A stretch of DNA of 32,000 bases from Candidatus Nanoarchaeia archaeon (GCA_028279745.1 JANQNC010000001.1:1269351-1301350); one strand, 5' to 3'; shown: positions 11,481 to 32,000, numbered from the stretch's first letter. Notes: a model not told the origin generated them from the letters alone. Numbers and translations: made by a program.

Positions 11481-12275
11481 ATGTTATCAACTAAGAATGC
11501 AATCGAACCATTGATCGGGCTTGGACTAAATAAGTATGAGGCAAAAGTGTACCTCACTTTGATAGGGGAAGGAATCAGTACAGCTAAGAATATTTCGGAT
11601 ATTACTGGAATCCCTTATGGAAAAGTTTATGAGGTTATAAACGCGTTGTCTTCAAAAGGGTTCTGCACGATACTTCCTTCAAAACCCATGAAGTGTCAGG
11701 CCATATCTCCTAGGGATGCTGTGATAAACGCAAAAAAAGATGTTGAAGAAAGATATGATAAGCTTGAAAGCCACATAGTGTCAGAGTTGGAGCCTCTGTT
11801 CGTAGAGAGCAGAAAGTTTGTGGAGCCCAAAGGGATATTCTGGGTGATAAATGGGAGAGCAAACGTGGTGAAAAAGATAGATGAGCTTATCCAGAAGGCA
11901 GAGAAAAATATATGCATACACTGCTCACCAAATAGTCTTTCAAGACTTGTCCTGCATAAGGAGCTGTTGAGAGAGGCAAATAAAAGAGGCGTCAACATAT
12001 CTATAGCAGGTGTTGTGAACAACGAAGTCCTTGAAGAGATAGACTCATTAGACTTTTGCGACATAAGAAAAGTAAAAAGTGCAAATAACAACTTGTTCTC
12101 TATAGACGATAAAGAGTGTTTGATAATAGAGCCGATGCCAGATGATGAGAATATATTATATGGAAGAGACTTGGGAGTTTGGGTATCATCCTCTTCATTC
12201 ACTAAGTTCATGTGCGATTTTTTTGCCACAAACTTTAAGAAAGCAAAATCTGTTTTTCCTCCTGTCAGTAAGTGA
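11481..12275 (+). CDS. TrmB-family transcriptional regulator (paralogue 1)
   Basis: 264 aa. N-terminal winged HTH is GLNKYEAKVYLTLIGEGISTAKNISDITGIPYGKVYEVINALSSKGF, followed by a TrmB-like C-terminal domain. A strong SD (GGGGGGGTGA, 11465-11474) lies 6 nt upstream of the ATG. Confidence 0.85.
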   Translation: MLSTKNAIEPLIGLGLNKYEAKVYLTLIGEGISTAKNISDITGIPYGKVYEVINALSSKGFCTILPSKPMKCQAISPRDAVINAKKDVEERYDKLESHIVSELEPLFVESRKFVEPKGIFWVINGRANVVKKIDELIQKAEKNICIHCSPNSLSRLVLHKELLREANKRGVNISIAGVVNNEVLEEIDSLDFCDIRKVKSANNNLFSIDDKECLIIEPMPDDENILYGRDLGVWVSSSSFTKFMCDFFATNFKKAKSVFPPVSK

Positions 12276-12284
12276 ACAGGATAC

Positions 12285-12292
12285 TTTTTTTT
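12285..12292 (+). terminator. T8 run, archaeal-type oligo-T terminator candidate after TrmB paralogue 1
   Basis: TTTTTTTT starts 10 nt after the stop at 12275. It is followed by an AT-rich TATA-like stretch (TTAATATAAAAAAT) ahead of the next gene. Confidence 0.3.
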
Positions 12293-12338
12293 CTTAATAT
12301 AAAAAATAGATAAATATTCTTTATGTAACTACAAGATT

Positions 12339-13136
12339 ATGGAAAACACTGACAGAGCGTTTAGGATACTGTCTGATATCGGACTGAATAAATATGAAGC
12401 AAAAGTGTATCTAACATTGGTGAGTGAAGGGGTAAGCACCGCAAAGAACATATCAGAAATTACGGGGATCCCATATGGGAAAGTATATGAGATAATAAAC
12501 ACTTTATCATATAAAGGATTTTCTATGATACTCCCTTCAAAACCTATGAAGTATACGGCAATATCGCCAAAACAGGTTCTTTTCTCTTCTAAGAACGAGA
12601 CGCTAGATAAGTTTAGGAAAATAGAAACAGATATAGTGAACAATCTGGAACCTTTGTTTATGAAAAACAGGCAGTTCACACAACCAAAGAGTGTGTTCTC
12701 ACTAGTCAACGGCAGATCTAGTGTAGTGAAGAAGACTGAGGAGCTGATAAACAAGGCTAACAAAAATATACATATCCAGTGCAGTGCAAATTCATTGTCG
12801 CGGCTAGTGCTCCACAAAGAGGCGTTGAAAAATGCTGCAGACAGAGATGTAAAAATAGCTATTGCAGGCATAACCGATGAGAGCAATAAGAAAGAGATAA
12901 GCTCTTTAGGGTTTTGTGATGTAAGGCAGATAAAAAGATCAAGAAGCAATTTCATCTCAGTAGACGCGAGTGAGTGTTTAGTTGTGACCCCCTTTCCAGA
13001 CGATGAGAACATAATCTTCGGAAGAGATACAGGAATGCACATACTAAGCAGCTCATTCACGTCTTTTACTGATAATTTTTTCATATCAAGTTTTAATAGA
13101 GCAAAAAAGATTGATTTATCCACTAAGCTGAGATAA
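12339..13136 (+). CDS. TrmB-family transcriptional regulator (paralogue 2)
   Basis: 265 aa, collinear with 11481..12275. The HTH is GLNKYEAKVYLTLVSEGVSTAKNISEITGIPYGKVYEIINTLSYKGF (40 of 47 positions identical to paralogue 1 by my count). Confidence 0.85.
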   Translation: MENTDRAFRILSDIGLNKYEAKVYLTLVSEGVSTAKNISEITGIPYGKVYEIINTLSYKGFSMILPSKPMKYTAISPKQVLFSSKNETLDKFRKIETDIVNNLEPLFMKNRQFTQPKSVFSLVNGRSSVVKKTEELINKANKNIHIQCSANSLSRLVLHKEALKNAADRDVKIAIAGITDESNKKEISSLGFCDVRQIKRSRSNFISVDASECLVVTPFPDDENIIFGRDTGMHILSSSFTSFTDNFFISSFNRAKKIDLSTKLR

Positions 13137-13233
13137 AAAACTTACCTGATATCTCTTGATTAAAAAAGAATAATAACTTCTTTCCCTTAGACTTTCAAAA
13201 AATAACTTTAAACGTAAAAGGGTGAGGGTCAAA

Positions 13234-16200
13234 ATGGTAAAAATAATGAACTTTAAGTCTATCAAATCTATTTTATTTCTGTTTGTATTTTTTTTGTCTA
13301 TCGTAGTTGTATCTGCAGCAAACTGTTGGGATTATGATCTCCAAACTAATTGTGAAAGTGCAGACTGTAGCTGGAATGAAGATCCCTGGGGGGGATGGTG
13401 TGAGGAAAAAGGATGCTGGAATTTTTGGTCAGAAAATGAATGTACAAGTTCGACAAGCACTATAAATAGATCTTGCAGCTGGCAATCATCTTCATCAGGT
13501 TATTGTGGGGAGTTGGATTGTTGGTCTTTTGACGGGACAAACGAGACAGCATGCGTAAATAATACATATAACATAGAATGTGAATGGATAGATGAATATA
13601 ATGCAACAACCTGGGACTTCCCCTGTATGGGCCCTCCAGAAAAACAATGCTGGAACTATACAACATCTGAATCCTGCAGTGCGGTTGCAGGGTGTAGCTG
13701 GGGGATGTGCTCTAAAAAGGATTGTTGGGACTATTCTGATACGGATGAATACACTTGTGAATCTCAAGTCGGATTCAACAAAAAATCTTGCGAATGGAAA
13801 AGCTATTCTTGGGGCAGTGAATGTGTAGAACGAGGGTGTTGGGACTATAGCAATGTAACTTCTTGTGAATCAAATGGATGTAAGTGGGACGGAAGCTGTA
13901 TGGAGCTTTCTTGTGGAGAATTTACTGGAGTAAATGAAAGTTATTGTGTAAGCAACAGCGCAAACCTAAGCTGTGAATGGGATTCAGCAGGTAAGTGGTG
14001 TATGGAAAAAGGATGCTGGAACAATGATGAAGGAAGTTGTGACAACGGCCTTGGCTGTTTTTGGGATACTTTTGAAGGGGGGTGGTGTCAAGAGCAAGGG
14101 TGCTGGAACTGGGAAAATAACCAGACAGCATGTGAAGATACAGGTCTTCATCCAGGACTTGAATGCACTTATGATGTTAGCGGAGGGTGGTGTTATGAAG
14201 ACGTTGGCTCCAAATCCTGTGCAGACATCAACGTAGAAAGAGACTGCATGGATACTTTTTACTGTTGGTGGGATCACTCTCAGAGCACATGCAACGATCC
14301 TGGCGCAGGTATAGAGACTGAGTTTGAAGAATGGAACCCTGGCTGTTATATCTTTGATATGGATCAAAATGCCTGTGGAAATGTTACTGGTTGTTATTGG
14401 AGCGGCGGTGTGTGTGAAACAAACATGACTGTGCTTCCTACTAATGAACTAAACTGCAGCCTTATACAAGACTCAGATATGTGTAATAACATACCTGCAT
14501 TGAGCAGCTGCTGCAGCTGGCAAGCTGGAGAGTGTGTGGCAGATAGATTCGATCAGTCTTGTCGTGAGGAGATGCAGGAACCGCCTGAAGGAGCACATTA
14601 TTGTGAAGACTATGTGGCATACACAAGCAAAGATGTATGTGAACAGATAGCGGGAAGCCCCTGGTTTATGCCGTGCGAGTTTGATAATTCTACTGAAAGA
14701 TGTGAGTTTAAAGGAGATGATGTCTTTGGAGATGGAGACAAGAACATAATGAAGATAGACAATGAGATAAATTGTGAAGCTGCAGGAGGAAAATGGATCC
14801 TTGACACATATCCGAGTACGAACAATGCAAGCACAGCCGTAAGACTATCTCTTGGAAGATGTGACTTTAAATTTGATGAAGAAAGAAACTGCAACAAGGA
14901 ATGTTTTGCATGTGAGTACAAACAAGACAAGACAAATTGGGGTACCGTTGCAGATGCAAGGAAAGCATGTGTCGATTCAGAGCTTGGACTTTGTAGATTT
15001 ATAGAAGATCCAGATGCGCCAAACAGCTACGGTTATTGCGAACCAAAAGAGGAATTCAAGAAAGGGCTTGTAGGGGGAGACTGCAGCACTGATTGTGGTG
15101 CATGCACCTATATGGGAGACCCTGCAGCATCAGCAGGAAAAAGGCCATCAGATTACTGTGAGGGCAGCGATGCAAAATGCAAGTGGGTAGCAGATCCTTC
15201 ACATCCTGATGATGAAAGCTTTGGAAGATGTGCATCAAAATCCGAAAAGACATGTGAGGATAGATGCGATAAATGTTATGATGAAAGCAACTGTCAAAGC
15301 ACAGGAGGAAAACAAGGAGACTCAAGTGCAGCAGCAGTATGTGAATGGAACAATGGAATATGCTCATATAAATCGGGAGCAAGCGAGATGGAAGTATGTT
15401 GGGATGGACAGGACAACAACGGGGATAATAAGGTAGACTGCGCAGATTCTATGTGCTGGTCAGACCCCTTTTGTGGCGGAGAGTTCATGTTTGGAGACTT
15501 CGGAAAAGACTGTTTCATGTTTAACGAACAATCAAGCTGTGAAACTGAAGGTTGTGCATGGGTAAACGAGAACTGGGGCGCATGGTGTGACATGCCTGGA
15601 GCAGTATGCTGGAAAAAAGACGGAACAAACCAGACAGTTTGTGAAGATGGCGGAAGCTGTGAATGGCACTCAGGCTTCGGAGGATTCTGCGAGCAGGACT
15701 GGGATATGGGGGGAGCTGCAAACTCATGCTTCTCAGCGACAAACCAGACAGGCTGTCAAGCACTATCAGACCAGAACTGCACCTGGGTTATCGACGAATG
15801 GTGCAGCGAAAAAGGAGGATTCTGTGACCCAGACCCTTCTTACAGCGGAGCATGGTATGATTGTGCACAGCATGACGTGGATGGAAATGCAACTTGTGAA
15901 TCACATGCAGAATGCAACTGGTATGTGGATCCTTGGTGTCAGCAACAAGGAAGCGATGCAGGATTCTGTGATCACAAAAGCTTTGCGTGCTGGCAGTATG
16001 ATGACGGTCAAAACATATGTGAGAATTCAACAAACTCAGAGTGGTGTGTCTGGATGACTGACCCTTACTCTCCTGAAGGAGGATTCTGTGAAGGAAAGAT
16101 GATGAGTGGAGAATCAGGAAGCTGTTGGGATCAGAGCAACCAGACCAGCTGCAGCGAAGCATCAGGATGCAGATGGATGAGTGGATTCTGTGACCCTCCT

Positions 16201-19110
16201 GGATTTGGAGGAGAGATGATGCCTGGAATGCCTGGCGGTGAAGGAGAAGGATCTGGAGGAGACCTGGGAGGATTTGGAATGCAGTGTTTCCTACATGATG
16301 GGGATCAGACAAGCTGCGAAGACCAGACAGGATGCGGATGGTTTAATGAGCCAAATCCGTTCTGTGACATAAACTTTGAAAGCAACTGTCCGCAGTACTC
16401 GTATGATCAAACTGTGTGCGCAGACAACGCAAAATGTAAATGGAATCCTCAAGGTAATTTCTGTGATGAAAAGCCATTTGAGTGTTTCTGGAACACTACA
16501 CTATGGGCAGATGAGACTTTGTGTGATGCACATCCGTTATGCTACTGGTCTGATGAGGCAGGTGATGACCATTGCCACCCTATAGGGTTCAGCGTCTCAA
16601 CAGAGTCAGCGTGTGATGCATTAGGAGACAGCTTCAGGTGGACAACAGGATGGTGCAACCCTGCACTAGCGACTGAGTTCTTCAGTGGGATGGAGATGGG
16701 CGGACCGCCGGTACCGTTAGGAAGCGATCCAGATGATTCTGTATTTGAAGATGAAGTAGACATAACTGAGTTTGGGATGAAAGACATGGGCAATGCATTT
16801 GGATTTGGAGTTACTGTGGATGACCCGCAAAATTCAGCGGCGTGCAACAATGTGAAGATGGAGACGGGTACAGGTACAGGAACAAACACGACAAAATTCT
16901 ACTGGTACCTGGATACTGATGGAAACACGACAAATAACTGTGACTTAAGGCACAGCTCGGGCTCAGGAGGTTATGAATTTTACATAAAGAACGAATGGAG
17001 CTATGATGAAAGCACAGGGACCACAACAGAAAGTCCAGCAGCTTACAGGTGTTTAGATGGTGAGTGGAATCTTGCAGAGGTAAGAGTTAGCAGTCAAAAG
17101 CAGCTGATGTGTAACCAGATTGGCGGAGCGATGGTAGCTATAGACAAGACAGAGCTTGAAAAATTCCCAAGTCTATACTCTACAAACGTGGATATAAGAG
17201 TTGCAGTAGCAAGCGCAGATAGTGATGGAACTGCCTCAAACCCAACAGACACAGCGAGCCCAGGGTGGGTAACTCCAGGTTCACAAGACTTTGAGATACC
17301 AGAACTTTATGGATACGAGACTGACTGGATCAAAAAAGCATCTAATGAAGCAGCAGGAGCAGGTTTTGTACAGTATAATAAGGAAGCGGATTGCTGGACT
17401 GAAGAGGGATGTGAAGATTACAGCTGTAAAGGGCACACGTTCTGCGTAGAAAACAATTATGGTGTTGAGTCAGCAGGGTGGACTGATACAAGAGTCCCTA
17501 AACTTATAGGGTCAATAAAAGAAACATACCCTGATGGGGCATTTTTCGCTTATTTTACAGACAAACCTGCAAATGGAACTTTCTTGCTTTATGGAGATGA
17601 TGAGATATGCAGCGAGTCAAGCTTGACAGATGCGATATATGACGTCGGGATATACAGCAACTATAGCAAAGAGTACAAGCTGTGGCATACGGCAGAGCTT
17701 TTCAACGACTCAGGAGTGAACTCATTAAACGCACCATTATCTTCAGGAACAACATACTACTATAAGATCAAAGTGTGTGATGAAGGAGGTAAATGTGGGA
17801 TGAGCAAGTGTTCAAGCTTTAGGACAGAAGAATCTCAAGAAGACTGTACGTTCTGTAAGTTTGTTTCAAGGATAAAAGCGCCTGATGGATGGAACGTCTA
17901 TTACGACATAGACCAGGATGGAAATTATGAGCACTGGCAAGGAAACGTTCTGGGAACAAAAGACGGCATGTTTACAAACTATACCCTTGGCAGGAAAGCA
18001 AATATACTCATCAACACAACTGATGGAACCGCACATATGGAGTTCATAAATGCGACGCTTACCAAGACAGGTATGAGTCCAAAGATAAGAGACATAGAGA
18101 CAAGCACAGCTCTAAAACAAGGAACGCTGAACACATCGTCAGGTGAAGAGATAGGGTATGTGGGGATGATAGAAGAGACAAGGGACAAGATTATACATAA
18201 TTTATACCCCGAGATATGTAGGATCAAGATACCTGGAACGGGATCATGTGATGAGTTATGGCACTGTGACAGTGATGGAGAAAATTGTGTTGATAGGACA
18301 GCAGAGGCTACTTTGGTAAGTACGGGATCAGACTCGTGCGAATGGCAGCTACCCTACTGTGAGTTCTCGACTTGGGCAGGAGGTCAGCCAGCCACTCCTT
18401 CAAGCAGCTCAAGCAGCTCTGGAGGAGGGGGAGGAGGCGGTTCCGGCGGAATTGCAGGAAGCACCTCATCAACTTCGGTTGTTGAAGTATCTCACTACTA
18501 CACATCGATAGCTGAAGGTGAAAGTATAACCCTGCCAATAGAAAAGGAAGGGATAGCGCTCACTAAAAACACGTTCATCGCTGGAGAAGATTTAAGTGAT
18601 ATGAACCTGGTGATGAGAAAAGTAGAGAATAGTTCAGAGCTTCCTAAAAAAGAGGAGGATGCATATCAATATCTAGAGATAACTGCATCAAACGTAGAAG
18701 CAAGCAGCATATCAAAAGCTACGTTAGAATTTAAGGTAGATACAAGCTGGATGACTGGCAATGACTATGGAGATGTAATCCTTAAAAGATATACAGATGG
18801 ATGGGATGAACTTCCGACAAGATTCATCAAGACTGAAGGAAGATACTCGCATTACAGCGCAGAAACACCTGGCTTTAGCTATTTTGCGATAGTTGGGATA
18901 AAGGATGATCTGGCTGATGCAGAACAACAAGACTTACCTCAGCAGGAGCAGCAGCAAGACCCCGAGCTTGAAGAAACAGATACACCTCAACAGCAAGTGA
19001 CGGGAGCTGCGGTAGCGCCTGGTGGGGGAGAAGGTGTGAGTGTGACAAACATCCTTATCTTTGTAGTCCTATTGGGTACGGTGGTGCTTATAATTGCAAA
19101 GAAGAGATAA
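13234..19110 (+). CDS. Giant secreted, C-terminally membrane-anchored Cys/Trp-repeat surface protein with an FN3-like region and a PGF-pre-PGF domain
   Basis: ORF 13222..19110. The GTG at 13222 lies inside GGGTGAGGG (an SD), so the ATG at 13234 is preferred (1959 aa). N-terminal signal peptide is FKSIKSILFLFVFFLSIVVVSAA. It is followed by more than 20 Cys/Trp modules and many N-x-S/T sequons. A Ser/Gly linker is PSSSSSSSGGGGGGGSGG. The C-terminus is the TM helix VTNILIFVVLLGTVVLII plus AKKR. Confidence 0.9.
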   Translation: MVKIMNFKSIKSILFLFVFFLSIVVVSAANCWDYDLQTNCESADCSWNEDPWGGWCEEKGCWNFWSENECTSSTSTINRSCSWQSSSSGYCGELDCWSFDGTNETACVNNTYNIECEWIDEYNATTWDFPCMGPPEKQCWNYTTSESCSAVAGCSWGMCSKKDCWDYSDTDEYTCESQVGFNKKSCEWKSYSWGSECVERGCWDYSNVTSCESNGCKWDGSCMELSCGEFTGVNESYCVSNSANLSCEWDSAGKWCMEKGCWNNDEGSCDNGLGCFWDTFEGGWCQEQGCWNWENNQTACEDTGLHPGLECTYDVSGGWCYEDVGSKSCADINVERDCMDTFYCWWDHSQSTCNDPGAGIETEFEEWNPGCYIFDMDQNACGNVTGCYWSGGVCETNMTVLPTNELNCSLIQDSDMCNNIPALSSCCSWQAGECVADRFDQSCREEMQEPPEGAHYCEDYVAYTSKDVCEQIAGSPWFMPCEFDNSTERCEFKGDDVFGDGDKNIMKIDNEINCEAAGGKWILDTYPSTNNASTAVRLSLGRCDFKFDEERNCNKECFACEYKQDKTNWGTVADARKACVDSELGLCRFIEDPDAPNSYGYCEPKEEFKKGLVGGDCSTDCGACTYMGDPAASAGKRPSDYCEGSDAKCKWVADPSHPDDESFGRCASKSEKTCEDRCDKCYDESNCQSTGGKQGDSSAAAVCEWNNGICSYKSGASEMEVCWDGQDNNGDNKVDCADSMCWSDPFCGGEFMFGDFGKDCFMFNEQSSCETEGCAWVNENWGAWCDMPGAVCWKKDGTNQTVCEDGGSCEWHSGFGGFCEQDWDMGGAANSCFSATNQTGCQALSDQNCTWVIDEWCSEKGGFCDPDPSYSGAWYDCAQHDVDGNATCESHAECNWYVDPWCQQQGSDAGFCDHKSFACWQYDDGQNICENSTNSEWCVWMTDPYSPEGGFCEGKMMSGESGSCWDQSNQTSCSEASGCRWMSGFCDPPGFGGEMMPGMPGGEGEGSGGDLGGFGMQCFLHDGDQTSCEDQTGCGWFNEPNPFCDINFESNCPQYSYDQTVCADNAKCKWNPQGNFCDEKPFECFWNTTLWADETLCDAHPLCYWSDEAGDDHCHPIGFSVSTESACDALGDSFRWTTGWCNPALATEFFSGMEMGGPPVPLGSDPDDSVFEDEVDITEFGMKDMGNAFGFGVTVDDPQNSAACNNVKMETGTGTGTNTTKFYWYLDTDGNTTNNCDLRHSSGSGGYEFYIKNEWSYDESTGTTTESPAAYRCLDGEWNLAEVRVSSQKQLMCNQIGGAMVAIDKTELEKFPSLYSTNVDIRVAVASADSDGTASNPTDTASPGWVTPGSQDFEIPELYGYETDWIKKASNEAAGAGFVQYNKEADCWTEEGCEDYSCKGHTFCVENNYGVESAGWTDTRVPKLIGSIKETYPDGAFFAYFTDKPANGTFLLYGDDEICSESSLTDAIYDVGIYSNYSKEYKLWHTAELFNDSGVNSLNAPLSSGTTYYYKIKVCDEGGKCGMSKCSSFRTEESQEDCTFCKFVSRIKAPDGWNVYYDIDQDGNYEHWQGNVLGTKDGMFTNYTLGRKANILINTTDGTAHMEFINATLTKTGMSPKIRDIETSTALKQGTLNTSSGEEIGYVGMIEETRDKIIHNLYPEICRIKIPGTGSCDELWHCDSDGENCVDRTAEATLVSTGSDSCEWQLPYCEFSTWAGGQPATPSSSSSSSGGGGGGGSGGIAGSTSSTSVVEVSHYYTSIAEGESITLPIEKEGIALTKNTFIAGEDLSDMNLVMRKVENSSELPKKEEDAYQYLEITASNVEASSISKATLEFKVDTSWMTGNDYGDVILKRYTDGWDELPTRFIKTEGRYSHYSAETPGFSYFAIVGIKDDLADAEQQDLPQQEQQQDPELEETDTPQQQVTGAAVAPGGGEGVSVTNILIFVVLLGTVVLIIAKKR
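13324..14703 (+). repeat. Protein-level repeat array I: about 13 copies of a 4-Cys/Trp module
   Basis: Examples: CWDYDLQTNCESADCSWNEDPWGGWCEEKG / CWNFWSENECTSS..CSWQSSSSGYCGELD / CWDYSNVTSCESNGCKWDGSCMELS / CWNNDEGSCDNGLGCFWDTFEGGWCQEQG. The pattern is C-[WF]-x(4-9)-C-x(3-9)-C-x-W-x(2-9)-C. DNA-level identity between copies is low. Confidence 0.8.
14890..15363 (+). repeat. Protein-level repeat: three copies of a 6-Cys module (CxxxCxxC-Y head plus a C-x-[WF] tail)
   Basis: CNKECFACEY...CVDSELGLCRF...C / CSTDCGACTY...CEGSDAKCKW...C / CEDRCDKCY...CQS...VCEW..IC. Confidence 0.7.
15511..16656 (+). repeat. Protein-level repeat array II: about 10 further Cys/Trp modules, interrupted by a Gly/Met/Pro-rich linker
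   Basis: CFMFNEQSSCETEGCAWVNENWGAWCDMPG / CWKKDGTNQTVCEDGGSCEWHSGFGGFCEQD / CWDQSNQTSCSEASGCRWMSGFCDPPG / CFLHDGDQTSCEDQTGCGWFNEPNPFCD / CPQYSYDQTVCADNAKCKWNPQGNFCDE. The linker is GGEMMPGMPGGEGEGSGGDLGGFG. Confidence 0.8.
17496..17826 (+). other. FN3-like beta-sandwich region inside the giant protein
   Basis: PKLIGSIKETYPDGAFFAYFTDKPANGTFLLYGDD...LWHTAELFNDSGVNSLNAPLSSGTTYYYKIKVCDEGGKCGMSKCSSFRT follows the P..a.v.w.Td.pa.g.v.yG....H...l..L..gt.YyY pattern of FN3-type domains. Confidence 0.5.
18478..18897 (+). other. PGF-pre-PGF-type domain (TIGR04213-like) inside the giant protein
   Basis: VVEVSHYYTSIAEGESITLPIEKEGIALTKNTF...YQYLEITASNVEASSISKATLEFKVDTSWMTGNDYGDVILKRYTDGWDELPTRFIKTEGRYSHYSAETPGFSYFAIVG matches, from memory, the layout of this archaeal surface-protein domain. 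That includes its terminal tPGFS.FAI motif. Confidence 0.6.
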
Positions 19111-19164
19111 CCTTTTCTTCTTTTATCGAGGGGTTGTCGATAGGGTCAGGAGGTGTGTAAAACC

Positions 19165-19905: not shown

Positions 19906-19997
19906 TATCTTAAGCTCACACTATTTTAAATATGTTTTATTACCCTAAGTGCATATAAAAAAGATACTTATGGCTAAGCATATATCTAGGACTGATC

Positions 19998-20219: not shown

Positions 20220-20277
20220 AAAAAGTTGCTGACCAAATAATAACTGATTATATGATCAAAAACCAAAAAATAATTAA

Positions 20278-20296: not shown

Positions 20297-20332
20297 ATTT
20301 CGCGATGTTTCTTAAATCATGTTTAATCCTGT

Positions 20333-24645: not shown

Positions 24646-24854
24646 CTAATCTTACCTCCCGATTTCTTGTTTTTTTTAACTTGGGGTGTTGTGTGGTAAA
24701 AATGTTATCTGTTATCTGAAAAGGGAGAATCGTCTTTACCGATGATAAAGATAAAAAAAGAGTTTTATGATGTGTTTTCTTTTTTATGTAAATAAGGGAG
24801 ACATAATGGAAAAAGATCTTGAAGAATTGAAAGAGTTGGAAGAATGCGAGGAGG

Positions 24855-25088
24855 ATGAAGAAGTTGGTTGAAGTAGTATTATTGAGATACTGTCTTGGAT
24901 GTGGCGGTATTGAAACAAAGTCAAAAAGCAACAAGCATATCACAAAAAGCAGGCTTTTTCAGATCATACAAGAGAGCTCAGTAGAGTTCAGCCACGGCAT
25001 ACACAGCAAGAACTGCTTAAGGAAATTGTATGGTGGGAAATACACGAAAGCAGCGAATAATGGTGAATTATATGATGCATGCAGATAA
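24855..25088 (+). CDS. Doubtful small ORF (77 aa) with a CxxC and an HxxHxxxC
   Basis: It sits in the divergent intergenic region. GAGGAGG abuts the ATG, which is too close for a typical SD. The sequence is MKKLVEVVLLRYCLGCGG...FSHGIHSKNC. No family recognised. Confidence 0.2.
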   Translation: MKKLVEVVLLRYCLGCGGIETKSKSNKHITKSRLFQIIQESSVEFSHGIHSKNCLRKLYGGKYTKAANNGELYDACR

Positions 25089-25130
25089 GAGGGGGCGGTA
25101 AAAATAGCTGATGGTGAAGAAGGACCGGAC

Positions 25131-25970
25131 TTGTATTTTCAAGGAGAGAACAATACTGGAGACAGGGCAGAGGGCGAAATATATCCGCAGTCTGGCTCTC
25201 AAGATGAGAATAACCAAGATATGGAACGTGCGGAAGGTTCAGCACAAGATTCACACGAAATGCATACAGAAAGCGATCTTACAGAAAGGGTGCAGACAGG
25301 AGTGCCTGGTCTGGATGAGATGATCGAAGGCGGGTTTAAGAGAGATAGGATAACTCTCGTCGGAGGGATGGCAGGAGCAGGAAAAACTATATTGTCTATG
25401 CAGTTCATAATAAATGGGATCTTAAAATTTGGTGAGAATGGTGTTTACGTTAGTTTTGAAGAGAACAAAAAAAGGATATTTGAAGATATGCTAAGGTTTG
25501 GATGGGATCTGGCAAAATTGGAAGAAGAAGGGAAATTTGCATTTGTAGAATACACGCCTGAACAGGTAAACAAAGTAGTTGAAACTGGAGGGGGAGTTAT
25601 GAGGGAATTAGTTGATAGGATCAACGCAAAAAGGATAGTGATAGACAGTATATCTGCTTTTAATCTTCTTCATAAGAACGAATTTGAGAAAAGAGAAGCC
25701 ACACTAAACCTCTTCAACTCGATGAGAAAATGGGGGTGCAGTGCAGTGGTGACTGGCCAGTACAGATTTTCAGAAGACATGATGGTATGTTCACCAATAG
25801 AATTTGAAGTAGACAATGTGATACTTCTTCATAACATAAAAAATAATAACATAAGAGTGAGAGCGCTAGAGGTATTCAAGATGAGGGGAACAAGACATTC
25901 TCCAGATACCAATATGATGCAGATAACTGAAGAGGGAGTAGTTGTTTACCCCGGTGAGCAGATATTTTGA
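25131..25970 (+). CDS. KaiC-like / ArlH(FlaH)-like single-domain ATPase; start uncertain
   Basis: Core motifs are VQTGVPGLDEMIEGG, Walker A GGMAGAGKT and Walker B-like RIVIDSIS. The ORF-track start is a TTG at 25131 with no good SD. In-frame ATGs at 25221 and 25260 are alternatives. The roughly 45 residues before the core are acidic and low-complexity. The stop lies 3 nt before the next gene. Confidence 0.8.
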   Translation: MYFQGENNTGDRAEGEIYPQSGSQDENNQDMERAEGSAQDSHEMHTESDLTERVQTGVPGLDEMIEGGFKRDRITLVGGMAGAGKTILSMQFIINGILKFGENGVYVSFEENKKRIFEDMLRFGWDLAKLEEEGKFAFVEYTPEQVNKVVETGGGVMRELVDRINAKRIVIDSISAFNLLHKNEFEKREATLNLFNSMRKWGCSAVVTGQYRFSEDMMVCSPIEFEVDNVILLHNIKNNNIRVRALEVFKMRGTRHSPDTNMMQITEEGVVVYPGEQIF

Positions 25971-25973
25971 AAA

Positions 25974-28049
25974 ATGTCAAAAAAGTGCCAGTCTGCCGTA
26001 GAGGTAATGATAATACTTGCAGTTTCAATATTTATATTATCAATGATACTTGTTGTAGGCAGCAAGATGCTGGGGGGAAGCAGCAGTAAAGTAGAATCGT
26101 CAAAAGCTAGAACCACAGTAGACAGCTTATCAAACGCTGCAGACTTAGTGTATCAAGAAGGGGTGGGATCGAGAACAAGAGTTTATGTAACTTTACCTGA
26201 TGAGATCCAAAGCTTTACCACACAGAACCAGACACTGAAGATGAGGCTCTATTCAGGAGGGGATCTGAAAGATGTGTACAGGAACCTTGATTTTAATATC
26301 TCAGGAGAACTGCCTTCTGAGGAGGGCAATTACTGGATCTATCTTGAGTCAAGGGAAGGATATGTGTATATCAGCAAAAACGCGTCAATCAAAGACCTAG
26401 CACCGCCAAACTCGGTAACAAATCTTGCAGACAAGTCTTCAGGATATACCTGGATATACTGGAACTGGACCAACCCATCAGATACGGATTTTAGCCAATC
26501 AATAGTTTTTATCGGGGGCATTAACGTGCTAAATACGTCTAATAATTATTACAATGCAACCGGACTGAGCGAAGACACAAGCTATACAATAAATATCCAT
26601 ACAAAAGATATCAATGGAAACATAAATGACAACAACGTGACTGATGATGCTTCCACCCTGCATCTCCCTATCGTAATAGTATCACTAAGCGAAAACCCAG
26701 ACCCAGTAGCCCAGAACAGCAACGTAACAATAACTGCAAACGTGACCAGTGATAATGAGATAAGTTCGGTGTGGGCAGAGCTGGGAGGTGTAAACTATAG
26801 TATGGTCAGACAGTTACAGACTGAGCTTGTGACAAAGTGGACCGAAGATTTCTCTTCAGACACTGACTGGGCAACTTGGGACAGTGAAGGGTGGGGGATC
26901 GCCTATGTGAACAGCGCATCAGACTGTATAGATGACTCTAATGACGACTGCATGAACGCAGACGGGTTCGGAACAAATGACCTATACAAGCAGACGGACA
27001 TAGACCTAAGCGACTGCGTAAACGGCAGCGCATACTTTTACATAGAAAAAGTCAAGGAAGAAGGCACATTAGAATCTTCAGACTGTATGGAAGCGCACTT
27101 CTCAGAAGATAGCGGGAACTCTTGGAGCAGCGACTATAACATATTATGTGATGACGATCCAGATCCTACAAAGAACATTACAATACCTGACCAATACCTA
27201 ACATCTCAAGCAAGGGTTATGATAGAAAAAGAAAACTTTGGTGGATTTGGAGAAGATGTGTGGCTTGACGGGTTTAGGATAGACTGTTCAGTACAAAACT
27301 TTACTGGGTTGTGGGAGCTATCGCATAACACTTCAGATGAGACAGGTCTTGTAAGCTATACTGTTTATGCAAATGATACCTCTGGAAACAATGCAGTTCC
27401 AAAAACAGGAAACTTTACTGTAGAACTTATATGGAGCTTATTGTTTAGCGACAACTTTGACAGATCAGATAGCAGCATTTTAGGAAACGGCTGGATAGAA
27501 GTGGATAGTGACTCAGATGCAGATTCAAAAATAAGCAGCAACAGGTTAGTCCTTGATACAGATGACAACACAAACCAACCAAGGGCATTACACAGCTTTG
27601 ACCAAAAAAGTACAGGGACTGTGAACTGGACTTACACGCTAAACTTTGAAAGGACCGGAAGCGAAAACTGGTACGAACTGTTCATGCAGCTTGGAAATAA
27701 TGCGACTATGGTGGATCCTTCAACAAGCGACAGTACGGGAGTTGCAGTTAACCTGAAATGGGCAGGACCAAACCAGGGCATGACAAACCATGAAGGGTTT
27801 GGGTATGTGCAAGGAGGTTCTGTAACCGAGGTTGAGATAGTGAGCGGGGGAGATGCAGTGATAGAGATCATTGCAGACATGGACAGTAATGTGTTTAACG
27901 TATCGGTCGATGGCGTGCAAAAAGCGAATGACGTATCTTTTGACAATAATGTATCAGTGGATGCAGTACGAATTTACACTGACGGACTTTATCAGAACAA
28001 CTTTGACCTTAGAGAGATAGACAGCATAACTGTACACCACAAACCATGA
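25974..28049 (+). CDS. Large pilin-like protein: class III signal peptide plus pilin head fused to FN3-like and jelly-roll-like extracellular domains
   Basis: 691 aa. The N-terminus is MSKKCQSAVEVMIILAVSIFILSMILVVG, followed by ARTTVDSLSNAADLVYQEGVGSRTRVYVTLP (the same layout as the 139-aa pilin-like gene that follows). FN3-like stretch is PPNSVTNLADKSSGYTWIYWNWTNPSDTDF...TGLSEDTSYTINIHTKDINGN (about 26400-26620). There are many N-x-S/T sequons. Confidence 0.8.
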   Translation: MSKKCQSAVEVMIILAVSIFILSMILVVGSKMLGGSSSKVESSKARTTVDSLSNAADLVYQEGVGSRTRVYVTLPDEIQSFTTQNQTLKMRLYSGGDLKDVYRNLDFNISGELPSEEGNYWIYLESREGYVYISKNASIKDLAPPNSVTNLADKSSGYTWIYWNWTNPSDTDFSQSIVFIGGINVLNTSNNYYNATGLSEDTSYTINIHTKDINGNINDNNVTDDASTLHLPIVIVSLSENPDPVAQNSNVTITANVTSDNEISSVWAELGGVNYSMVRQLQTELVTKWTEDFSSDTDWATWDSEGWGIAYVNSASDCIDDSNDDCMNADGFGTNDLYKQTDIDLSDCVNGSAYFYIEKVKEEGTLESSDCMEAHFSEDSGNSWSSDYNILCDDDPDPTKNITIPDQYLTSQARVMIEKENFGGFGEDVWLDGFRIDCSVQNFTGLWELSHNTSDETGLVSYTVYANDTSGNNAVPKTGNFTVELIWSLLFSDNFDRSDSSILGNGWIEVDSDSDADSKISSNRLVLDTDDNTNQPRALHSFDQKSTGTVNWTYTLNFERTGSENWYELFMQLGNNATMVDPSTSDSTGVAVNLKWAGPNQGMTNHEGFGYVQGGSVTEVEIVSGGDAVIEIIADMDSNVFNVSVDGVQKANDVSFDNNVSVDAVRIYTDGLYQNNFDLREIDSITVHHKP

Positions 28050-28465
28050 AGATGAGAGCGCAAATATCCACAGAATTCATAATGATAACATCTGTAATGT
28101 TGATCATTTTCCTGATGATGTTTTCAATAATCGATAAAAGAGATAATGAAGTGTATTCTGGGATGGCTGTGCTTTCTGCAAGGACAGAAGGAGATAAGTT
28201 AGCTAACAATATAAATTCGGTTTTTCTTGCAAAAGAAGGAGCAAAGAAGACAATAATCCTTCCAGAGACATTAAAGGACGGAAACGACTATTTAGTGGCC
28301 ATCTACCCATCAGACCGGTTGGTGGAGGTAAGATGGAATTCTCTAGAGGGAACAAGAACATACACTTCAACGATCGTAACATCAAAAGTAACAGGGTACC
28401 TAAGCGCAATAAGCAACACCTCCTTAACAATATCAAACATAGAGGGGGGTGTAGTTATTGAATAA
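28046..28465 (+). CDS. Pilin-like protein with a class III signal peptide (QxSxEF type)
   Basis: 139 aa. The N-terminus is MKMRAQISTEFIMITSVMLIIFLMMF. There is an ATGA overlap with the upstream gene. Confidence 0.8.
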   Translation: MKMRAQISTEFIMITSVMLIIFLMMFSIIDKRDNEVYSGMAVLSARTEGDKLANNINSVFLAKEGAKKTIILPETLKDGNDYLVAIYPSDRLVEVRWNSLEGTRTYTSTIVTSKVTGYLSAISNTSLTISNIEGGVVIE

Positions 28466-28985
28466 GGCCCAAATGTTTTCTTTAGACTCTTTTATCGCAA
28501 TAGGGATATTTATATTTATAATCCTGCTTTCAGCAATATTGTGGGATTATGGGCGAGAAAAGATTTCAGTAGAAGAGACAAGAAACGATATGGGTCGCAT
28601 TGCAAGAAATGCTTTGTCCGCCCTTGCCGAGACAAAAGGCAATCCAGCAAACTGGACAGAATATGATCTCGACGGATCGACAATAACCTCGTTAGGTCTT
28701 GCAAGCGAATTTTTAGTCATCGACACACAAAAGATAAACTCGTTATCCCTGGCAGATTATGCAGATGCAAAAAAGATGCTTGGTGTTCTTGGGCCAGGTT
28801 ATGAGTTTACGCTAAAGTTGTATTCATGGAACGGAAGCGAATATCTTAGTGAATATTCTGCAGGCATAGAACCAGATGCAGCATCTTATGAAGTTGTAAA
28901 GACAGAAAGAGCAGTATTGTTAAACGACAGTTGGGCAAGAGCCACATTGAAGCTCTGGAAATCTTGTGAGGACATAACATGCTAA
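28458..28985 (+). CDS. Pilin-like protein with a class III-type N-terminus
   Basis: 175 aa. TTG start at 28458, 6-7 nt after GAGGGGGGTG. The N-terminus is MNKAQMFSLDSFIAIGIFIFIILLSAILW. An alternative ATG lies at 28473. There is an 8-nt overlap with the upstream gene. Confidence 0.7.
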   Translation: MNKAQMFSLDSFIAIGIFIFIILLSAILWDYGREKISVEETRNDMGRIARNALSALAETKGNPANWTEYDLDGSTITSLGLASEFLVIDTQKINSLSLADYADAKKMLGVLGPGYEFTLKLYSWNGSEYLSEYSAGIEPDAASYEVVKTERAVLLNDSWARATLKLWKSCEDITC

Positions 28986-29389
28986 GCAAAAAGACTATGA
29001 TCTTTACACTTGACGCGCTGTTAGCGATCAGCATAGCAATATTGATCGCATCTTCCTGTTTTGTTTTTTTATCAAAAACATCTTCAGGGGTATATCATGT
29101 CAGAGGTGCATATCTAATATCATCAGATAGTCTCACTGTTCTGGAGAAAAGTGATGCTTTGAAGGAAGCGATAACGCTAAACAGTACGACAAGCATAGAA
29201 GAGTTTATAGGAGGTATGCCTTCACAGGTATGTGGCAGTGTAACGGTCTATGATTCGTTATCATCGTCAAAGCTCTCTGTACAGAGAGAAGGTTGCACAT
29301 CAAAAAACTTATCTGCAGTGGCCTATAGGGTGTTTGTGGATGATGAAGAAAACATATACTATGCAAAGATGGAGAGCTGGTACAGATGA
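28979..29389 (+). CDS. Pilin-like protein with a class III-type N-terminus
   Basis: 136 aa. The N-terminus is MLSKKTMIFTLDALLAISIAILIASSCFVF. GAGGA lies 6 nt upstream. There is a 7-nt overlap with the upstream gene. Confidence 0.7.
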   Translation: MLSKKTMIFTLDALLAISIAILIASSCFVFLSKTSSGVYHVRGAYLISSDSLTVLEKSDALKEAITLNSTTSIEEFIGGMPSQVCGSVTVYDSLSSSKLSVQREGCTSKNLSAVAYRVFVDDEENIYYAKMESWYR

Positions 29390-30222
29390 AAAGAAAGAGC
29401 ATGTTGTTTACAGTGACGACTACGCTTTTATTCTTGTCGATACTGATTCTTATAGTATCTTACCTGGGAAGATACAACGAACTGGAAAGCATGGCTTCAA
29501 CCTCGATGGCAGGAAGCAGGATGAGTTATATTGAAGATGATATAACTGGAAAAGTATACTCAGATATATTATCGCTCAATGTTGAATCTATAACTGAAGA
29601 AGCGTACGCCACCGTAATCTTCAACCACTCTAATCTGACTTCAGATATTGATCATGGCCAACTTATGAAAGACTATGAGAGTTTTATAGAGGGAAGTTAT
29701 TCTACAATAAACAATGCTGAGATAACTCTGACAAATTTTACAAATTCAATCTTTATCATGCCTTACGGAAGCACCATAACTGTTGAGGGGGGTGTCATCT
29801 ATGTATTTACAGAAAACGCTTCAAGCATAAGCGAAGTTAACATATCGGTGAGTACTGGCGAATCATCAAACATATCAGAAGGTCGCCCTTCTAATAGCGG
29901 CAGTGTAGATCTAAGCGTGGATATAGATTATAGCGGGGGATCTTTTAGCGAGACAGCTTCTTTAGATCCTGCCGCAGCAAACGATCCTTTTTATGTAAAT
30001 TTTGAATCTGGATCAAGAGTGGAAGTCCGTTTTGGCAGTCACGGTGGCAGGGAGGGAACTTTAGTGTTGAACGTGTCACATGCCGCGGCAGACCTGTCAA
30101 GGGTAAGCGTGGGTTATGAGCCATCATCTGAAAAAGTGAAAGTTGTAGGTGGGAACATATCTATAAGCTTTCCAGTTGAGAACATGACTAAAACTTCTGA
30201 GATACTAATTTCAGAGGGATAG
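29386..30222 (+). CDS. Pilin-like / secreted protein with a basic leader plus hydrophobic helix N-terminus
   Basis: 278 aa. The N-terminus is MKRKSMLFTVTTTLLFLSILILIVSYL. The rest is Ser/Thr/Asn-rich with several N-x-S/T sequons. There is an ATGA overlap with the upstream gene. Confidence 0.65.
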   Translation: MKRKSMLFTVTTTLLFLSILILIVSYLGRYNELESMASTSMAGSRMSYIEDDITGKVYSDILSLNVESITEEAYATVIFNHSNLTSDIDHGQLMKDYESFIEGSYSTINNAEITLTNFTNSIFIMPYGSTITVEGGVIYVFTENASSISEVNISVSTGESSNISEGRPSNSGSVDLSVDIDYSGGSFSETASLDPAAANDPFYVNFESGSRVEVRFGSHGGREGTLVLNVSHAAADLSRVSVGYEPSSEKVKVVGGNISISFPVENMTKTSEILISEG

Positions 30223-30244
30223 GCTATAAAGGTTATGAAAAGTT

Positions 30245-30264
30245 ATTATCCCTGCAGGGATAAT
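30245..30264. promoter_or_regulatory. Perfect 20-bp palindrome ATTATCCCTGCAGGGATAAT (terminator hairpin and/or operator)
   Basis: It starts 23 nt after the stop of the last pilin-like gene and is followed by TTTTGTTATT. It lies about 20 nt upstream of the TATA-like TTATATAAAAAAATAATATA (30281-30300) that precedes the gene starting at 30326. Confidence 0.5.
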
Positions 30265-30325
30265 TTTGTTATTATGTTGGGTTATATAAAAAAATAATAT
30301 AACTAAACATATCTTTTTACTGTCT

Positions 30326-31546
30326 ATGATTTTAAAAACAGGAATACCAAAACTTGATGAGGCTCTTCAGGGAGGCATATCTAAGAATAAAAGCATGATG
30401 CTCTACTCAACTCCAGGGGTGGAGAGCATACCTTTTGCCTTTCAACTGCTTCATACAAGATTAGAAGAAGGAGACAAGGTAATCTACTTAGTCAACAATA
30501 AGAAACCAGATTCAGTAAGATTTATGATAAAAGATTATGGGTGGGACGTATCTGAGTATGAGAAAAAAGGGATGTTTGTTTTTTTTGACGCATACTCAGG
30601 ACTGATCGGGCTGGAAAGCGAAGAGAGGTACAAGACAAAAGAGGTCAACAATCTAGAGAAGATAAGAACAGACCTTTTCGCAGCGCTTGAAGAGATGAAA
30701 GATGATAAGAATACTATAATGGTGTTTGACTCTTTATCCACCCTGATAGACATGTGCGGCAACACAGACATGATAGGTGAGTGCGTAAACAAATGTTTCC
30801 CTGATCTAGAAAAGCTTAATGTGACTCCCATATTCTTATTTACGGCGTGGGCATATGACTCTTCTATGCTGGATAAGATAAGAGGTTTTTTTGATTGTGT
30901 TGTAGACCTTAAAGCGATAGAGGAGAAAGTTATACTGCGAAACTATTTTACTGTGCATAAAGCAGACTGGGCAGATGGCATAAAAAAACAAGGCGTACCG
31001 TTTAAGGTGACAAGACCCGGAGGCATAAAGGTATACATACCAAAACTTCTCGTCACAGGACCTTTTAATGCAGGGAAATCAAGCTTTATACATTCAGCAT
31101 CCACGAAAGCGGTCTCTGTAGACAGGTTAGGGACGACAATAGCTCTAGACCATGGTCATGTAGACTATGAAGGTTTTTCTGTTGATCTGTGGGGTACTCC
31201 AGGGCAGGAGCGTTTTGATCCGATAATAAAAAATCTTGGGGGTGAATCCATGGGGGTCATAATAGTTGTCGACAGTACAGACCCTGCGGGGTTTGCAAGA
31301 GCTAAAGAGCTGGTGGGAGTGACAAAGACTGAAGGTCTTCCGTTAGTTATCGCTGCGAACAAGTCAGATATGGATGGTGCGCTAAAAGTTGATGAAGTAA
31401 AAGAAAGGATGGGCTTGCCTGATGATCTGCCAGTAATAGCTGTTACAGCAGAAGATATTACCCAAGTAAAGAAAGACAATATCTGCAAATTAAAAGATGA
31501 TGATATACATAGCGTACTGCATGAGATATTCAAGAGGGTAGTCTAA
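30326..31546 (+). CDS. Fusion protein: KaiC-like domain with a degenerate P-loop plus a small GTPase domain (archaeal COG2229 / MglA-like type)
   Basis: 406 aa. The N-terminal domain aligns with both KaiC-like proteins in the window (LKTGIPKLDEALQGG... and Walker B-like IMVFDSLS). However, its Walker A position reads STPGVESI, with no Lys or Ser/Thr. The C-terminal domain has G1 GPFNAGKS (31057-31083), G3 LWGTPGQERF and G4 AANKSD. Confidence 0.85.
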   Translation: MILKTGIPKLDEALQGGISKNKSMMLYSTPGVESIPFAFQLLHTRLEEGDKVIYLVNNKKPDSVRFMIKDYGWDVSEYEKKGMFVFFDAYSGLIGLESEERYKTKEVNNLEKIRTDLFAALEEMKDDKNTIMVFDSLSTLIDMCGNTDMIGECVNKCFPDLEKLNVTPIFLFTAWAYDSSMLDKIRGFFDCVVDLKAIEEKVILRNYFTVHKADWADGIKKQGVPFKVTRPGGIKVYIPKLLVTGPFNAGKSSFIHSASTKAVSVDRLGTTIALDHGHVDYEGFSVDLWGTPGQERFDPIIKNLGGESMGVIIVVDSTDPAGFARAKELVGVTKTEGLPLVIAANKSDMDGALKVDEVKERMGLPDDLPVIAVTAEDITQVKKDNICKLKDDDIHSVLHEIFKRVV

Positions 31547-31548
31547 AG

Positions 31549-31869
31549 ATGGCAGATATTGTGTACTATATCATAAAAGGGATAGCATTTGTCGTGTTTT
31601 GTGTTATATTTGTAATGATCGAAGAAATAAGGAAAAAAGTTGAGAGAGGGAGTAAAAAACAAGCGTGGACTTTTTTGAGTGCAGGATCTTTCATATATGT
31701 GCTTGCGGCTTTGTTTGAACTTTTGGGCGAGCTTGATAAAGTGAGCATATTCTTTGAATATTCTGGGGAGATAGTTCTTTTCATATCATTATGCCTGATA
31801 TTCTGGGGCATATTCAAGCTTCGTTTCTTTTCAGATGAGGGCAGAAAGAAAATACTGAAAAGGAGTTGA
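31549..31869 (+). CDS. Small integral membrane protein (3 predicted TM helices)
   Basis: 106 aa, starting 2 nt after the fusion-gene stop. Hydrophobic stretches are IIKGIAFVVFCVIFVMI, FLSAGSFIYVLAALFELLG and IVLFISLCLIFWGIF. No family recognised. Confidence 0.6.
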   Translation: MADIVYYIIKGIAFVVFCVIFVMIEEIRKKVERGSKKQAWTFLSAGSFIYVLAALFELLGELDKVSIFFEYSGEIVLFISLCLIFWGIFKLRFFSDEGRKKILKRS

Positions 31870-31883
31870 AAAGGTAGTTGAAA

Positions 31884-32000
31884 ATGGTGGATACTAAGAA
31901 GGAGAGGTTGGATGAGATTTTGCAGAAGCTTACGTCTTCTGGTGATGTTGAAGGTGCAGCAGTTGTAACTAGAGATGGGCTTTTGATAGCTTCTGAGTTG
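31884..32000 (+). CDS. Roadblock/LC7 (MglB-like) domain protein, 5' fragment; runs off the window
   Basis: ATG at 31884. Translation MVDTKKERLDEILQKLTSSGDVEGAAVVTRDGLLIASEL contains the characteristic GV.GA.VV..DGL.IAS start of Roadblock/LC7 domains. Confidence 0.75.
   Translation, partial: MVDTKKERLDEILQKLTSSGDVEGAAVVTRDGLLIASEL

Follow-up and report, generated by a model that had tools for sequence, protein, structure and literature searches.

The 32,000-nucleotide stretch of DNA analyzed here (Candidatus Nanoarchaeia archaeon, GCA_028279745.1, JANQNC010000001.1:1269351-1301350; in the following the window) raises the question of whether a dense run of genes for surface proteins, pilus components and NTPases encodes one machine or several. 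DPANN archaea live attached to other cells and, to our knowledge, the mechanism by which Woesearchaeota make contact is almost unknown and none of them is in pure culture. A first-pass annotation of the window had proposed that some 20 kb form a single integrated adhesion or cell-contact apparatus, consisting of a pilus that bears an adhesin at its tip, a giant protein as stalk and a regulatory layer of NTPases. Our analysis leads to a different answer. With a probability that we put at about 0.65, the region is made up, like a mosaic, of three modules that are each conserved on their own, namely a type IV pilus system, a giant Cys/Trp-rich protein and a pseudo-KaiC-GTPase/Roadblock cassette, which were juxtaposed by genome rearrangement in a Woesearchaeota-like DPANN lineage. 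The adjacency of the three modules is lineage-specific, and a functional coupling between them is a hypothesis that we regard as doubtful.

This reading is based on the comparison of gene neighborhoods. Overall, 172 loci were fetched. The pilus set comprised 80 loci on contigs chosen at one genome per species, each covering up to 10 kb on either side of a homologue of the pilus ATPase, and was searched by tblastn with 27 window proteins. A second set contained 32 loci of at least 9 kb around homologues of the KaiC-GTPase fusion, and a third one six contexts of the giant gene (L166, L167, L168, L170, L171 and L172). Families were called with Pfam and NCBIfam profile models and the cut-offs of these models. 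The pilus genes remained syntenic in the 80 related loci. The giant gene was found in none of the 80, and none of the six giant-gene contexts contained pilus genes; the GTPase/Roadblock cassette accompanied a pilus in one of the 80 pilus loci (L068) and in one of the 32 KaiC-GTPase loci (L099), both from the same lineage. As a query of only 39 residues, which is all that the window encodes of its Roadblock protein, could miss Roadblock genes near pilus loci, the pilus set was rechecked with six full-length Roadblock proteins, a FIST protein and the GTPase domain, and L068 was the sole match. The two open reading frames (ORFs) between the giant gene and the pilus genes, one for a CARDB-domain protein and one of 73 codons, were likewise detected by tblastn in none of the 80 loci.

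In L166, the relative whose giant protein and GTPase come closest to those of the window (about 65% identity each), the second of two TrmB regulator genes, the giant gene and the KaiC-GTPase gene are directly adjacent; the latter two are 83 nucleotides apart, and pilus genes are absent. L167 shares the gene order of the window between 3.3 and 19.1 kb, after which response regulators and a histidine kinase follow, i.e. a two-component system. The giant gene is accompanied by DsbA and peptidase genes in L168, by genes for an S_layer_C protein and glycosyltransferases in L170, and by housekeeping genes in L171 and L172, and in the metagenome-assembled genome GCA_018263355.1 it lies on a different contig from the pilus locus. 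Since the homologues are scattered and unlinked in relatives, which the first-pass annotation had itself named as refuting its proposal, the unity of the three parts fails and the proposal is only partly upheld; what remains of it includes the pilus as one system.

At the level of the window itself, the ORF listing and the domain scans recovered every gene, domain and overlap on which the proposal had been built, in the order described. Four overlaps are 4-nucleotide ATGA-type overlaps (21962-21965, 22852-22855, 28046-28049 and 29386-29389), and two are longer (8 nucleotides at 28458-28465 and 7 nucleotides at 28979-28985). A correction concerns the strands. The major pilin, platform and ATPase genes are located on the minus strand, divergent from the operon of KaiC and pilin-like genes, and the giant gene is on the strand opposite to the pilin gene and convergent with it, and at least four transcription units are present in the stretch; the predicted four are TrmB-giant-CARDB, ATPase-TadC-TadC-pilin, KaiC with the five pilin-like genes, and GTPase-3TM-Roadblock. 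The ATPase-bearing contig has a length of 1.30 Mb, and the nearest homologues of the ATPase (67% identity) are labelled Woesearchaeota or Nanoarchaeota, which places the source in DPANN. The episymbiotic lifestyle suggested earlier agrees with this taxonomy of the homologues.

Judged by gene content and order, the ten genes at 20.3-30.2 kb are one conserved type IV pilus system that is syntenic across DPANN, as their co-occurrence and order are conserved in the 80 loci. The minus-strand block encodes the major pilin (20333-20803, 156 amino acids), the two platform proteins TadC2 (20943-21965) and TadC1 (21962-22855), both matching PF00482 with 59 bits, and a pilus assembly ATPase of the T2SSE/VirB11-FlaI superfamily (22852-24645, 597 amino acids; PF00437, 108.6 bits against a cut-off of 24.9) with more than 7,500 homologues. 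TadC1 aligns with residues 35-206 of ArlJ and 55-231 of UpsF, and TadC2, which has six hydrophobic segments, with residues 209-462 and 276-476, respectively. By these alignments the two are the N- and C-terminal halves of a split FlaJ/TadC-type platform. An intergenic region of 575 nucleotides (24646-25220), read from the sequence as the presumed site of divergent promoters, separates this block from the plus-strand operon; it includes a 77-codon ORF (24855-25088) with a CxxC motif. The operon starts with a single-domain KaiC-like ATPase (25221-25970; PF06745, 214 bits) with an intact Walker A motif (GMAGAGKT). A longer ORF starts at 25131, and the homologues align from residues 45-52 of it. 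Five genes for pilin-like proteins follow on the same strand: p691 (25974-28049, 691 amino acids), p139 (28046-28465, 139 amino acids), p175 (28458-28985, 175 amino acids), p136 (28979-29389, 136 amino acids) and, as the last gene, p278 (29386-30222, 278 amino acids). Their N-terminal transmembrane (TM) segments span residues 4-22 in p691, p175 and p278 and residues 5-23 in p139 and p136.

All six pilin candidates have a short basic leader and a single N-terminal hydrophobic helix. Three of the six leaders carry Q at position +1 and E at position +5 of the predicted cleavage site (KKA/QGATE, KKC/QSAVE and MRA/QISTE, the slash marking the site); the leader of p691 reads KKC/QSAVEV and that of p139 MRA/QISTEF. 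The putative class III signal peptide of the major pilin matches PF04021 with 21.5 bits, just below the cut-off of 23.7. A homologue of TadC1 was found by tblastn next to the ATPase in 76 and one of TadC2 in 73 of the 80 loci. The major pilin is represented in 49, mostly right after TadC2 and in three to five tandem copies in L011, L037, L042 and L061, and the operon KaiC in 33, where it heads the same operon. Matches to p691 occur in 38 loci, to p139 in 30, to p175 in 45, to p136 in 37 and to p278 in 22, in the last case mostly directly upstream of the ATPase gene. The majority of the loci have the order KaiC-p691-p139-p175-p136-p278-ATPase-TadC-TadC-pilin on one strand, an arrangement that spans Woesearchaeota, Micrarchaeota and Iainarchaeota. 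Two loci, the window and L002, show an inversion of the ATPase block with respect to the KaiC block; in L002, a 5-kb insert with a response regulator (REC), a PAS histidine kinase and small KaiC-like proteins occupies the gap between ATPase and KaiC. With regard to function, the FlaI/TadA-like ATPase and the two-part TadC platform would assemble the major pilin, and the five pilin-like proteins, co-transcribed with the catalytically intact KaiC-like ATPase, probably constitute a priming or tip complex. Domain scans of the 32-kb window revealed no gene for a prepilin peptidase (PibD/EppA/FlaK, peptidase A24); this enzyme would be encoded elsewhere in the genome.

The pilus that the first-pass annotation had equipped with a tip adhesin is real, and a modular, adhesin-like minor pilin is plausible; for the CARDB-domain protein as the tip adhesin we found no support. 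The CARDB protein (19153-19905, plus strand, 250 amino acids; PF07705, 36.7 bits) is secreted, with a hydrophobic N-terminal segment. It was rejected as the tip adhesin as it lacks a pilin-type leader and has no homologue in any pilus locus. No homologue was detected in any of the 172 loci, and by this comparison it is lineage-specific. The likely best candidate for an adhesive tip subunit is instead p691. Its pilin-type N-domain (residues 1-135) is the sole part conserved among the pilus loci, which suggests that the C-terminal part is swapped between lineages. The modules that follow, an FN3-like unit of about 90 residues (135-230) and the segments 215-487 and 488-687, recur in proteins of 1,000-6,000 residues, the largest of which has 6,006; one protein of 4,876 residues matches p691 in 49 stretches, mostly with the FN3-like unit. 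The FN3 match to the structure 1k85 is weak. Because p691 shares these modules with large proteins, it is a better adhesin candidate than the CARDB protein and, with swappable adhesin modules, a candidate determinant of host specificity.

The second module is a single gene on the plus strand at 13222-19110 (database start 13234), which encodes a protein of 1,962 residues. The protein contains 138 Cys (7.0%), 75 Trp (3.8%) and 31 N-x-S/T sequons, and acidic residues (D+E, 16.6%) far outnumber basic ones (K+R, 6.2%). Cys repeats occupy residues 35-1150, where Cys/Trp-rich units of about 30 residues extend over about 1,100 residues. A signal-like hydrophobic segment is located at residues 8-26 and a C-terminal TM helix at residues 1936-1954, followed by KKR and devoid of a PGF motif. 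No Pfam model matched, and the one family match is the PGF-pre-PGF domain TIGR04213 at residues 1760-1892 (77.1 bits against a cut-off of 28); no CTERM model, PGF-CTERM or other archaeosortase signal, matched at E<=0.01. The family comprises 191 homologues of 1,800-2,100 residues from Woese-, Pace-, Nano- and Aenigmarchaeota, which are 35-65% identical over most of their length and in whose alignment the Cys residues are nearly invariant. An AlphaFold2 model of residues 1140-1900 (761 residues) shows a chain of beta-sandwich domains with a predicted local distance difference test (pLDDT) score of 84. A fold search with this part returned only generic beta-sandwich arrays (TM-score <=0.15) and no specific relative in the PDB. 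The gene has a G+C content of 0.43-0.48, compared with 0.36-0.40 in the flanks. The DsbA-like thioredoxin gene that adjoins the giant gene in L168 suggests that the Cys residues form disulfides, and the wealth of sequons makes glycosylation probable. The product is a stand-alone, family-conserved protein, acidic and rich in Cys, that carries a signal peptide and is anchored at its C-terminus; a role as an envelope or S-layer-type protein is the most likely one. Our literature search found no report on the family.

The third module begins at 30326 on the plus strand with a fusion gene (30326-31546) whose product combines a KaiC-like domain (residues 1-238; PF06745, 89 bits) with an MglA/Arf-like small GTPase domain (residues 239-406; Arf/Ras and TIGR00231 models, the latter with 46.2 bits against 42.5). 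The Walker A position of the KaiC-like domain reads STPGVESI(PF) and lacks GK[ST]. This loss is common to 24 aligned homologues, so the label pseudo-KaiC given in the first-pass annotation is correct for the family. The GTPase motifs G1 (GPFNAGKS), G3 (TPGQ) and G4 (NKSD) are kept in the same homologues. In G3, WGTPGQ aligns with WDIGGQ of Arl3 and places an invariant Gly290 at the position of the canonical Asp. The nearest solved sequences are Arl3/Arf (E of about 2e-11). The AlphaFold2 model of the fusion (pLDDT 87.8) retrieved mainly KaiC/RecA folds, so that the subfamily of the GTPase was indicated by the sequence alignment with Arl3 and not by the fold search. More than 1,000 homologues of about 405 residues and 50-65% identity, named only GTP-binding protein, occur in Woese-/Nanoarchaeota and Altiarchaeota. 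Downstream of the fusion lie genes for a 106-residue membrane protein with three hydrophobic segments (3-TM protein, 31549-31869) and for a Roadblock/LC7 (MglB-like) protein (31884-32000), both on the plus strand; the latter continues past the end of the window, and its first 39 residues are 75-85% identical to the starts of full-length PF03259 proteins encoded behind orthologous KaiC-GTPase genes in relatives. Roadblock follows KaiC-GTPase in 27 of the 32 loci, always either within 130 nucleotides or with a 3-TM ORF between them. Such an ORF (83-140 residues) is interposed in L068/L099, L089, L093, L094, L097/L107, L098, L100 and L111 and absent from most other loci. The lack of the Asp in G3 together with the Roadblock neighbor points to an MglA/MglB-like switch, in which the pseudo-KaiC-MglA-type GTPase, the 3-TM protein and Roadblock, the last acting as GTPase-activating protein or guanine nucleotide exchange factor, would cooperate. 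This mechanism is inferred from sequence.

The cassette belongs to a larger HAMP/FIST/PAS/KaiC signalling neighborhood. At the opposite end of the window, the minus strand encodes a KaiC protein with an intact Walker A motif (101-826, GPCGSGKS), a rhomboid protein (849-1451) and a HAMP protein (1870-3093). The KaiC/rhomboid pair recurs in five and the HAMP protein in six of the 32 KaiC-GTPase loci, which indicates that the signalling neighborhood of the window is split over both its ends. The pair stands directly beside KaiC-GTPase/Roadblock in L097/L107, L116, L117 and L122. L081 and L083 have the order TrmB-TrmB-KaiCGTPase-Roadblock-FIST-HAMP-Roadblock-PAS-KaiC with no pilus or giant genes, and in Altiarchaeales a bare GTPase/Roadblock pair is found amid housekeeping genes. 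Downstream repeats of HAMP-Roadblock or FIST-HAMP-Roadblock-PAS-KaiC units were observed at 15398-20303 of L068 and 11219-17400 of L081/L083. A similar signalling array probably continues beyond position 32000.

How the modules came to lie side by side is indicated by the relatives. Compared with L166, the window has an extra block of 11.2 kb (19111-30325) containing the CARDB gene, the 73-codon ORF and the pilus genes, and since TrmB, giant and KaiC-GTPase genes are directly adjacent in L166, this block looks like movable content. Insertion of the pilus block by a mobile element was considered and rejected, as there are no flanking repeats, direct or inverted, beyond chance size and no integrase or tRNA genes; the difference is better described as a rearrangement than as a recent mobile insertion. 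In L068/L099, TrmB is followed by the pilin gene (minus strand), the whole pilus operon and then KaiC-GTPase-Roadblock, and moving and inverting the ATPase-TadC-TadC segment of these loci would yield the order of the window. The window and L068/L099 may share an ancestral arrangement that closer relatives lost, or may have gained it separately.

Several observations weigh against a purely accidental mosaic. A pilus is placed between TrmB and KaiC-GTPase/Roadblock in L068/L099, i.e. in a second, more distant lineage, and by a rough estimate chance alone would bring two given loci to within 10 kb in about 1-2% of genomes of 1.3 Mb. In L081 and L117 the same slot is filled by different secreted or anchored proteins, so that the juxtaposition may be selected rather than neutral. 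In addition, close relatives are thinly sampled, many contigs are short, the giant-gene contexts number six, and the fold search gave no structural match that would back an envelope or S-layer function for the giant protein. The integrated apparatus, made and used together, would account for the contiguity of genes whose products are nearly all secreted proteins, membrane proteins or NTPases. It would also suit the DPANN affiliation of the organism, host attachment being central to such archaea, and archaeal pilus loci frequently include genes for Roadblock proteins, KaiC ATPases, and adhesins or S-layer proteins (PMC4858521). However, neither the giant nor the CARDB gene accompanies any of the 80 pilus loci, none of the six giant contexts has pilus genes, the GTPase/Roadblock pair is present in a single pilus locus, L166 joins the giant and KaiC-GTPase genes without pilus genes in between, and the giant gene runs on the opposite strand, towards the pilin gene. 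By synteny this explanation is largely refuted, and we consider it improbable. That the pilus ATPase belongs to an archaellum-like motility organelle, a DNA-uptake machine or a bindosome-type machine instead of an adhesion pilus is less likely still, to the point of being hardly credible. Among the NCBIfam models the ATPase does match FlaI best, and the locus also has a KaiC/FlaH-like ATPase, but the scores are far below the cut-offs (FlaI, 266 bits against 550; ArlH, 48 against 215; BasE, 152 against 1000). An archaellum is discarded on the FlaI and ArlH scores, and a bindosome identity is rejected in the same way. Furthermore, FlaF, FlaG and archaellin domains were not found in domain scans of the window, the platform shows the split known from Tad and euryarchaeal pili, and the large minor pilin bears adhesin-type modules.

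A further explanation regards the TrmB genes upstream and KaiC-GTPase/Roadblock downstream as a control frame around a variable slot for surface genes, the contents of which would be governed by the switch and TrmB. The two TrmB-family regulators of the window are plus-strand paralogues, TrmB1 of 264 residues (11481-12275; PF01978, 65 bits; PF11495, 47 bits) and TrmB2 of 265 residues (12339-13136; 79 and 42 bits, respectively), with winged helix-turn-helix (PF01978) and effector-binding (PF11495) domains above the cut-offs; against the NCBIfam equivalogs TrmB, TrmBL1 and TrmBL2 both score far below the cut-offs. TrmB1 orthologues (68-75% identity) lie upstream of the giant gene in L167 and of KaiC-GTPase in L081/L083, and TrmB2 directly precedes the giant gene in the window, L166 (60% identity) and L167 (65%). 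The slot is empty in L083, L111 and L122. It holds a secreted protein of 597 residues and an anchored one of 161 residues in L081, the giant protein in L166, the pilus in L068/L099, and the giant protein, CARDB protein and pilus in the window. In L117, an anchored protein of 368 residues is encoded just upstream of the GTPase, and KaiC and rhomboid also separate it from TrmB. A precedent is provided by MglA and SofG, which position pilus ATPases in Myxococcus (PMC4316618), and the REC and PAS histidine kinase genes in the gap of the L002 pilus locus are a parallel with a different signalling insert. On the other hand, the sample is small and its cases are possibly non-independent by shared ancestry, the Altiarchaeales pair sits among housekeeping genes, most pilus loci and most giant genes have no frame, and in L167 TrmB does precede the giant gene, but a two-component system follows it in place of the GTPase cassette. 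TrmB was found in 2 of the 80 pilus loci and upstream of KaiC-GTPase in 7 of the 32. We therefore regard the frame as unlikely, if less so than the integrated apparatus, and propose only tentatively that an archaeal MglA/MglB-like switch and paired TrmB proteins govern where or when an episymbiont builds its host-contact structures. The recurrent pattern of TrmB, surface genes and KaiC-GTPase/Roadblock is the one piece of evidence that hints at a regulatory layer. The NTPase layer of the first-pass annotation is compatible with this weak association, although the cassette is mostly unlinked to the pilus. Overall, the mosaic of separately conserved modules is the reading that we prefer.

The remaining genes of the window lie mostly to the left of the modules. 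Three geranylgeranyl-reductase-like FAD genes in tandem (3313-6972), a gene for a 790-residue protein without family match (7028-9400) and one for a PHP protein (9384-10316) are on the plus strand, and an AbrB/PhoU-like protein is encoded on the minus strand (10302-11204). The gene order from 3313 to 11204 is that of L167 (GCA_028279725.1) as far as the giant gene, which identifies the left half of the window as stable ancestral synteny. The 73-codon ORF (19998-20219, plus strand) has no Pfam or NCBIfam match and no homologue by tblastn in any searched locus and may not be a real gene. Two A-rich direct repeats of 26 nucleotides, 58 nucleotides apart, were noticed at 20198-20283 in the convergent gap between this ORF and the pilin gene, where they might act as oligo-T terminators of the minus-strand pilus operon.

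As handles on Woesearchaeota contact, the analysis offers a DPANN-wide ten-gene pilus operon, a giant Cys-rich protein family and a dead-KaiC/MglA-like GTPase with Roadblock. Showing separate modules and not one machine guards against over-interpretation of their adjacency, and the recurrent TrmB-to-GTPase frame, with surface genes inside it, offers a lead on the regulation of the symbiont surface that can be tested. As far as the literature was found to go, the giant and GTPase-fusion families are uncharacterized. We found no description of a fusion of an inactivated KaiC domain with a small GTPase; a 2017 paper by Makarova, Galperin and Koonin on KaiC as a signalling hub may describe it.

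When compared with known systems, the giant protein resembles archaeal S-layer and PGF surface glycoproteins in its signal peptide, acidity, many sequons, PGF-pre-PGF domain and C-terminal anchor, and as a stand-alone gene product with beta-sandwich arrays. It differs from S-layer and PGF-CTERM proteins in its roughly 1,100 residues of Cys/Trp repeats, the lack of a PGF-CTERM model match and the lack of a match to a solved S-layer protein. The nanohaloarchaeal SPEARE protein is a comparable giant surface protein of DPANN archaea. KaiC-like ATPases and FlaH reportedly act as regulators of pili and archaella, and the 2017 paper, as cited in PMC5847659, is said to include inactivated 'iKaiC' domains among them. 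Like FlaH with FlaI, a single-domain KaiC-like ATPase heads the pilin-like operon of the window, and the GTPase fusion joins a signalling domain to a KaiC domain that has been inactivated. In contrast to ArlH/FlaH, the equivalog scores of the window KaiC are far below the cut-offs.

In bacteria, the pair of MglA-type GTPase and Roadblock protein steers type IV pili. With the MglA/MglB systems of Myxococcus and Thermus the cassette shares a Ras-superfamily GTPase gene beside a Roadblock/LC7 gene and a G3 motif xTPGQ without Asp, which is the hallmark that sets MglA apart from other small GTPases (PMC4316618). Unlike MglA, the GTPase of the window carries an inactivated KaiC-like domain at its N-terminus, its gene is often separated from the Roadblock gene by one for a 3-TM protein, and its nearest solved sequences are Arl/Arf. 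Group 4 MglA proteins occur almost only in methanogens and have no conserved neighbors (Wuichet & Sogaard-Andersen 2014, PMC4316618), whereas the fusion family is found in Woese-/Nanoarchaeota and Altiarchaeota.

The pilus genes correspond most closely in content to euryarchaeal-type ('clade 2') archaeal pili, which have two tadC-like genes, a KaiC-family ATPase and several pilins (Makarova, Koonin & Albers 2016, PMC4858521). Common to both are the VirB11/FlaI-family ATPase, the pair of tadC-like genes and the KaiC-family ATPase in the operon (PMC4858521), a PilA-like major pilin, in the window with a putative class III signal, that is sometimes present in tandem, several distinct minor pilins, and occasional adhesin, S-layer and Roadblock genes nearby. 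The DPANN form differs in its fixed ten-gene order, which in the window is broken by the inversion of the ATPase block, and in one minor pilin being fused to FN3-like and other modules of giant surface proteins; furthermore, the window encodes no prepilin peptidase. The experimental counterpart of the euryarchaeal type is the PilA/PilB/PilC pili of Haloferax volcanii. As a whole, the locus is a variant of those archaeal type IV pilus loci that have KaiC, Roadblock and surface genes as accessories.

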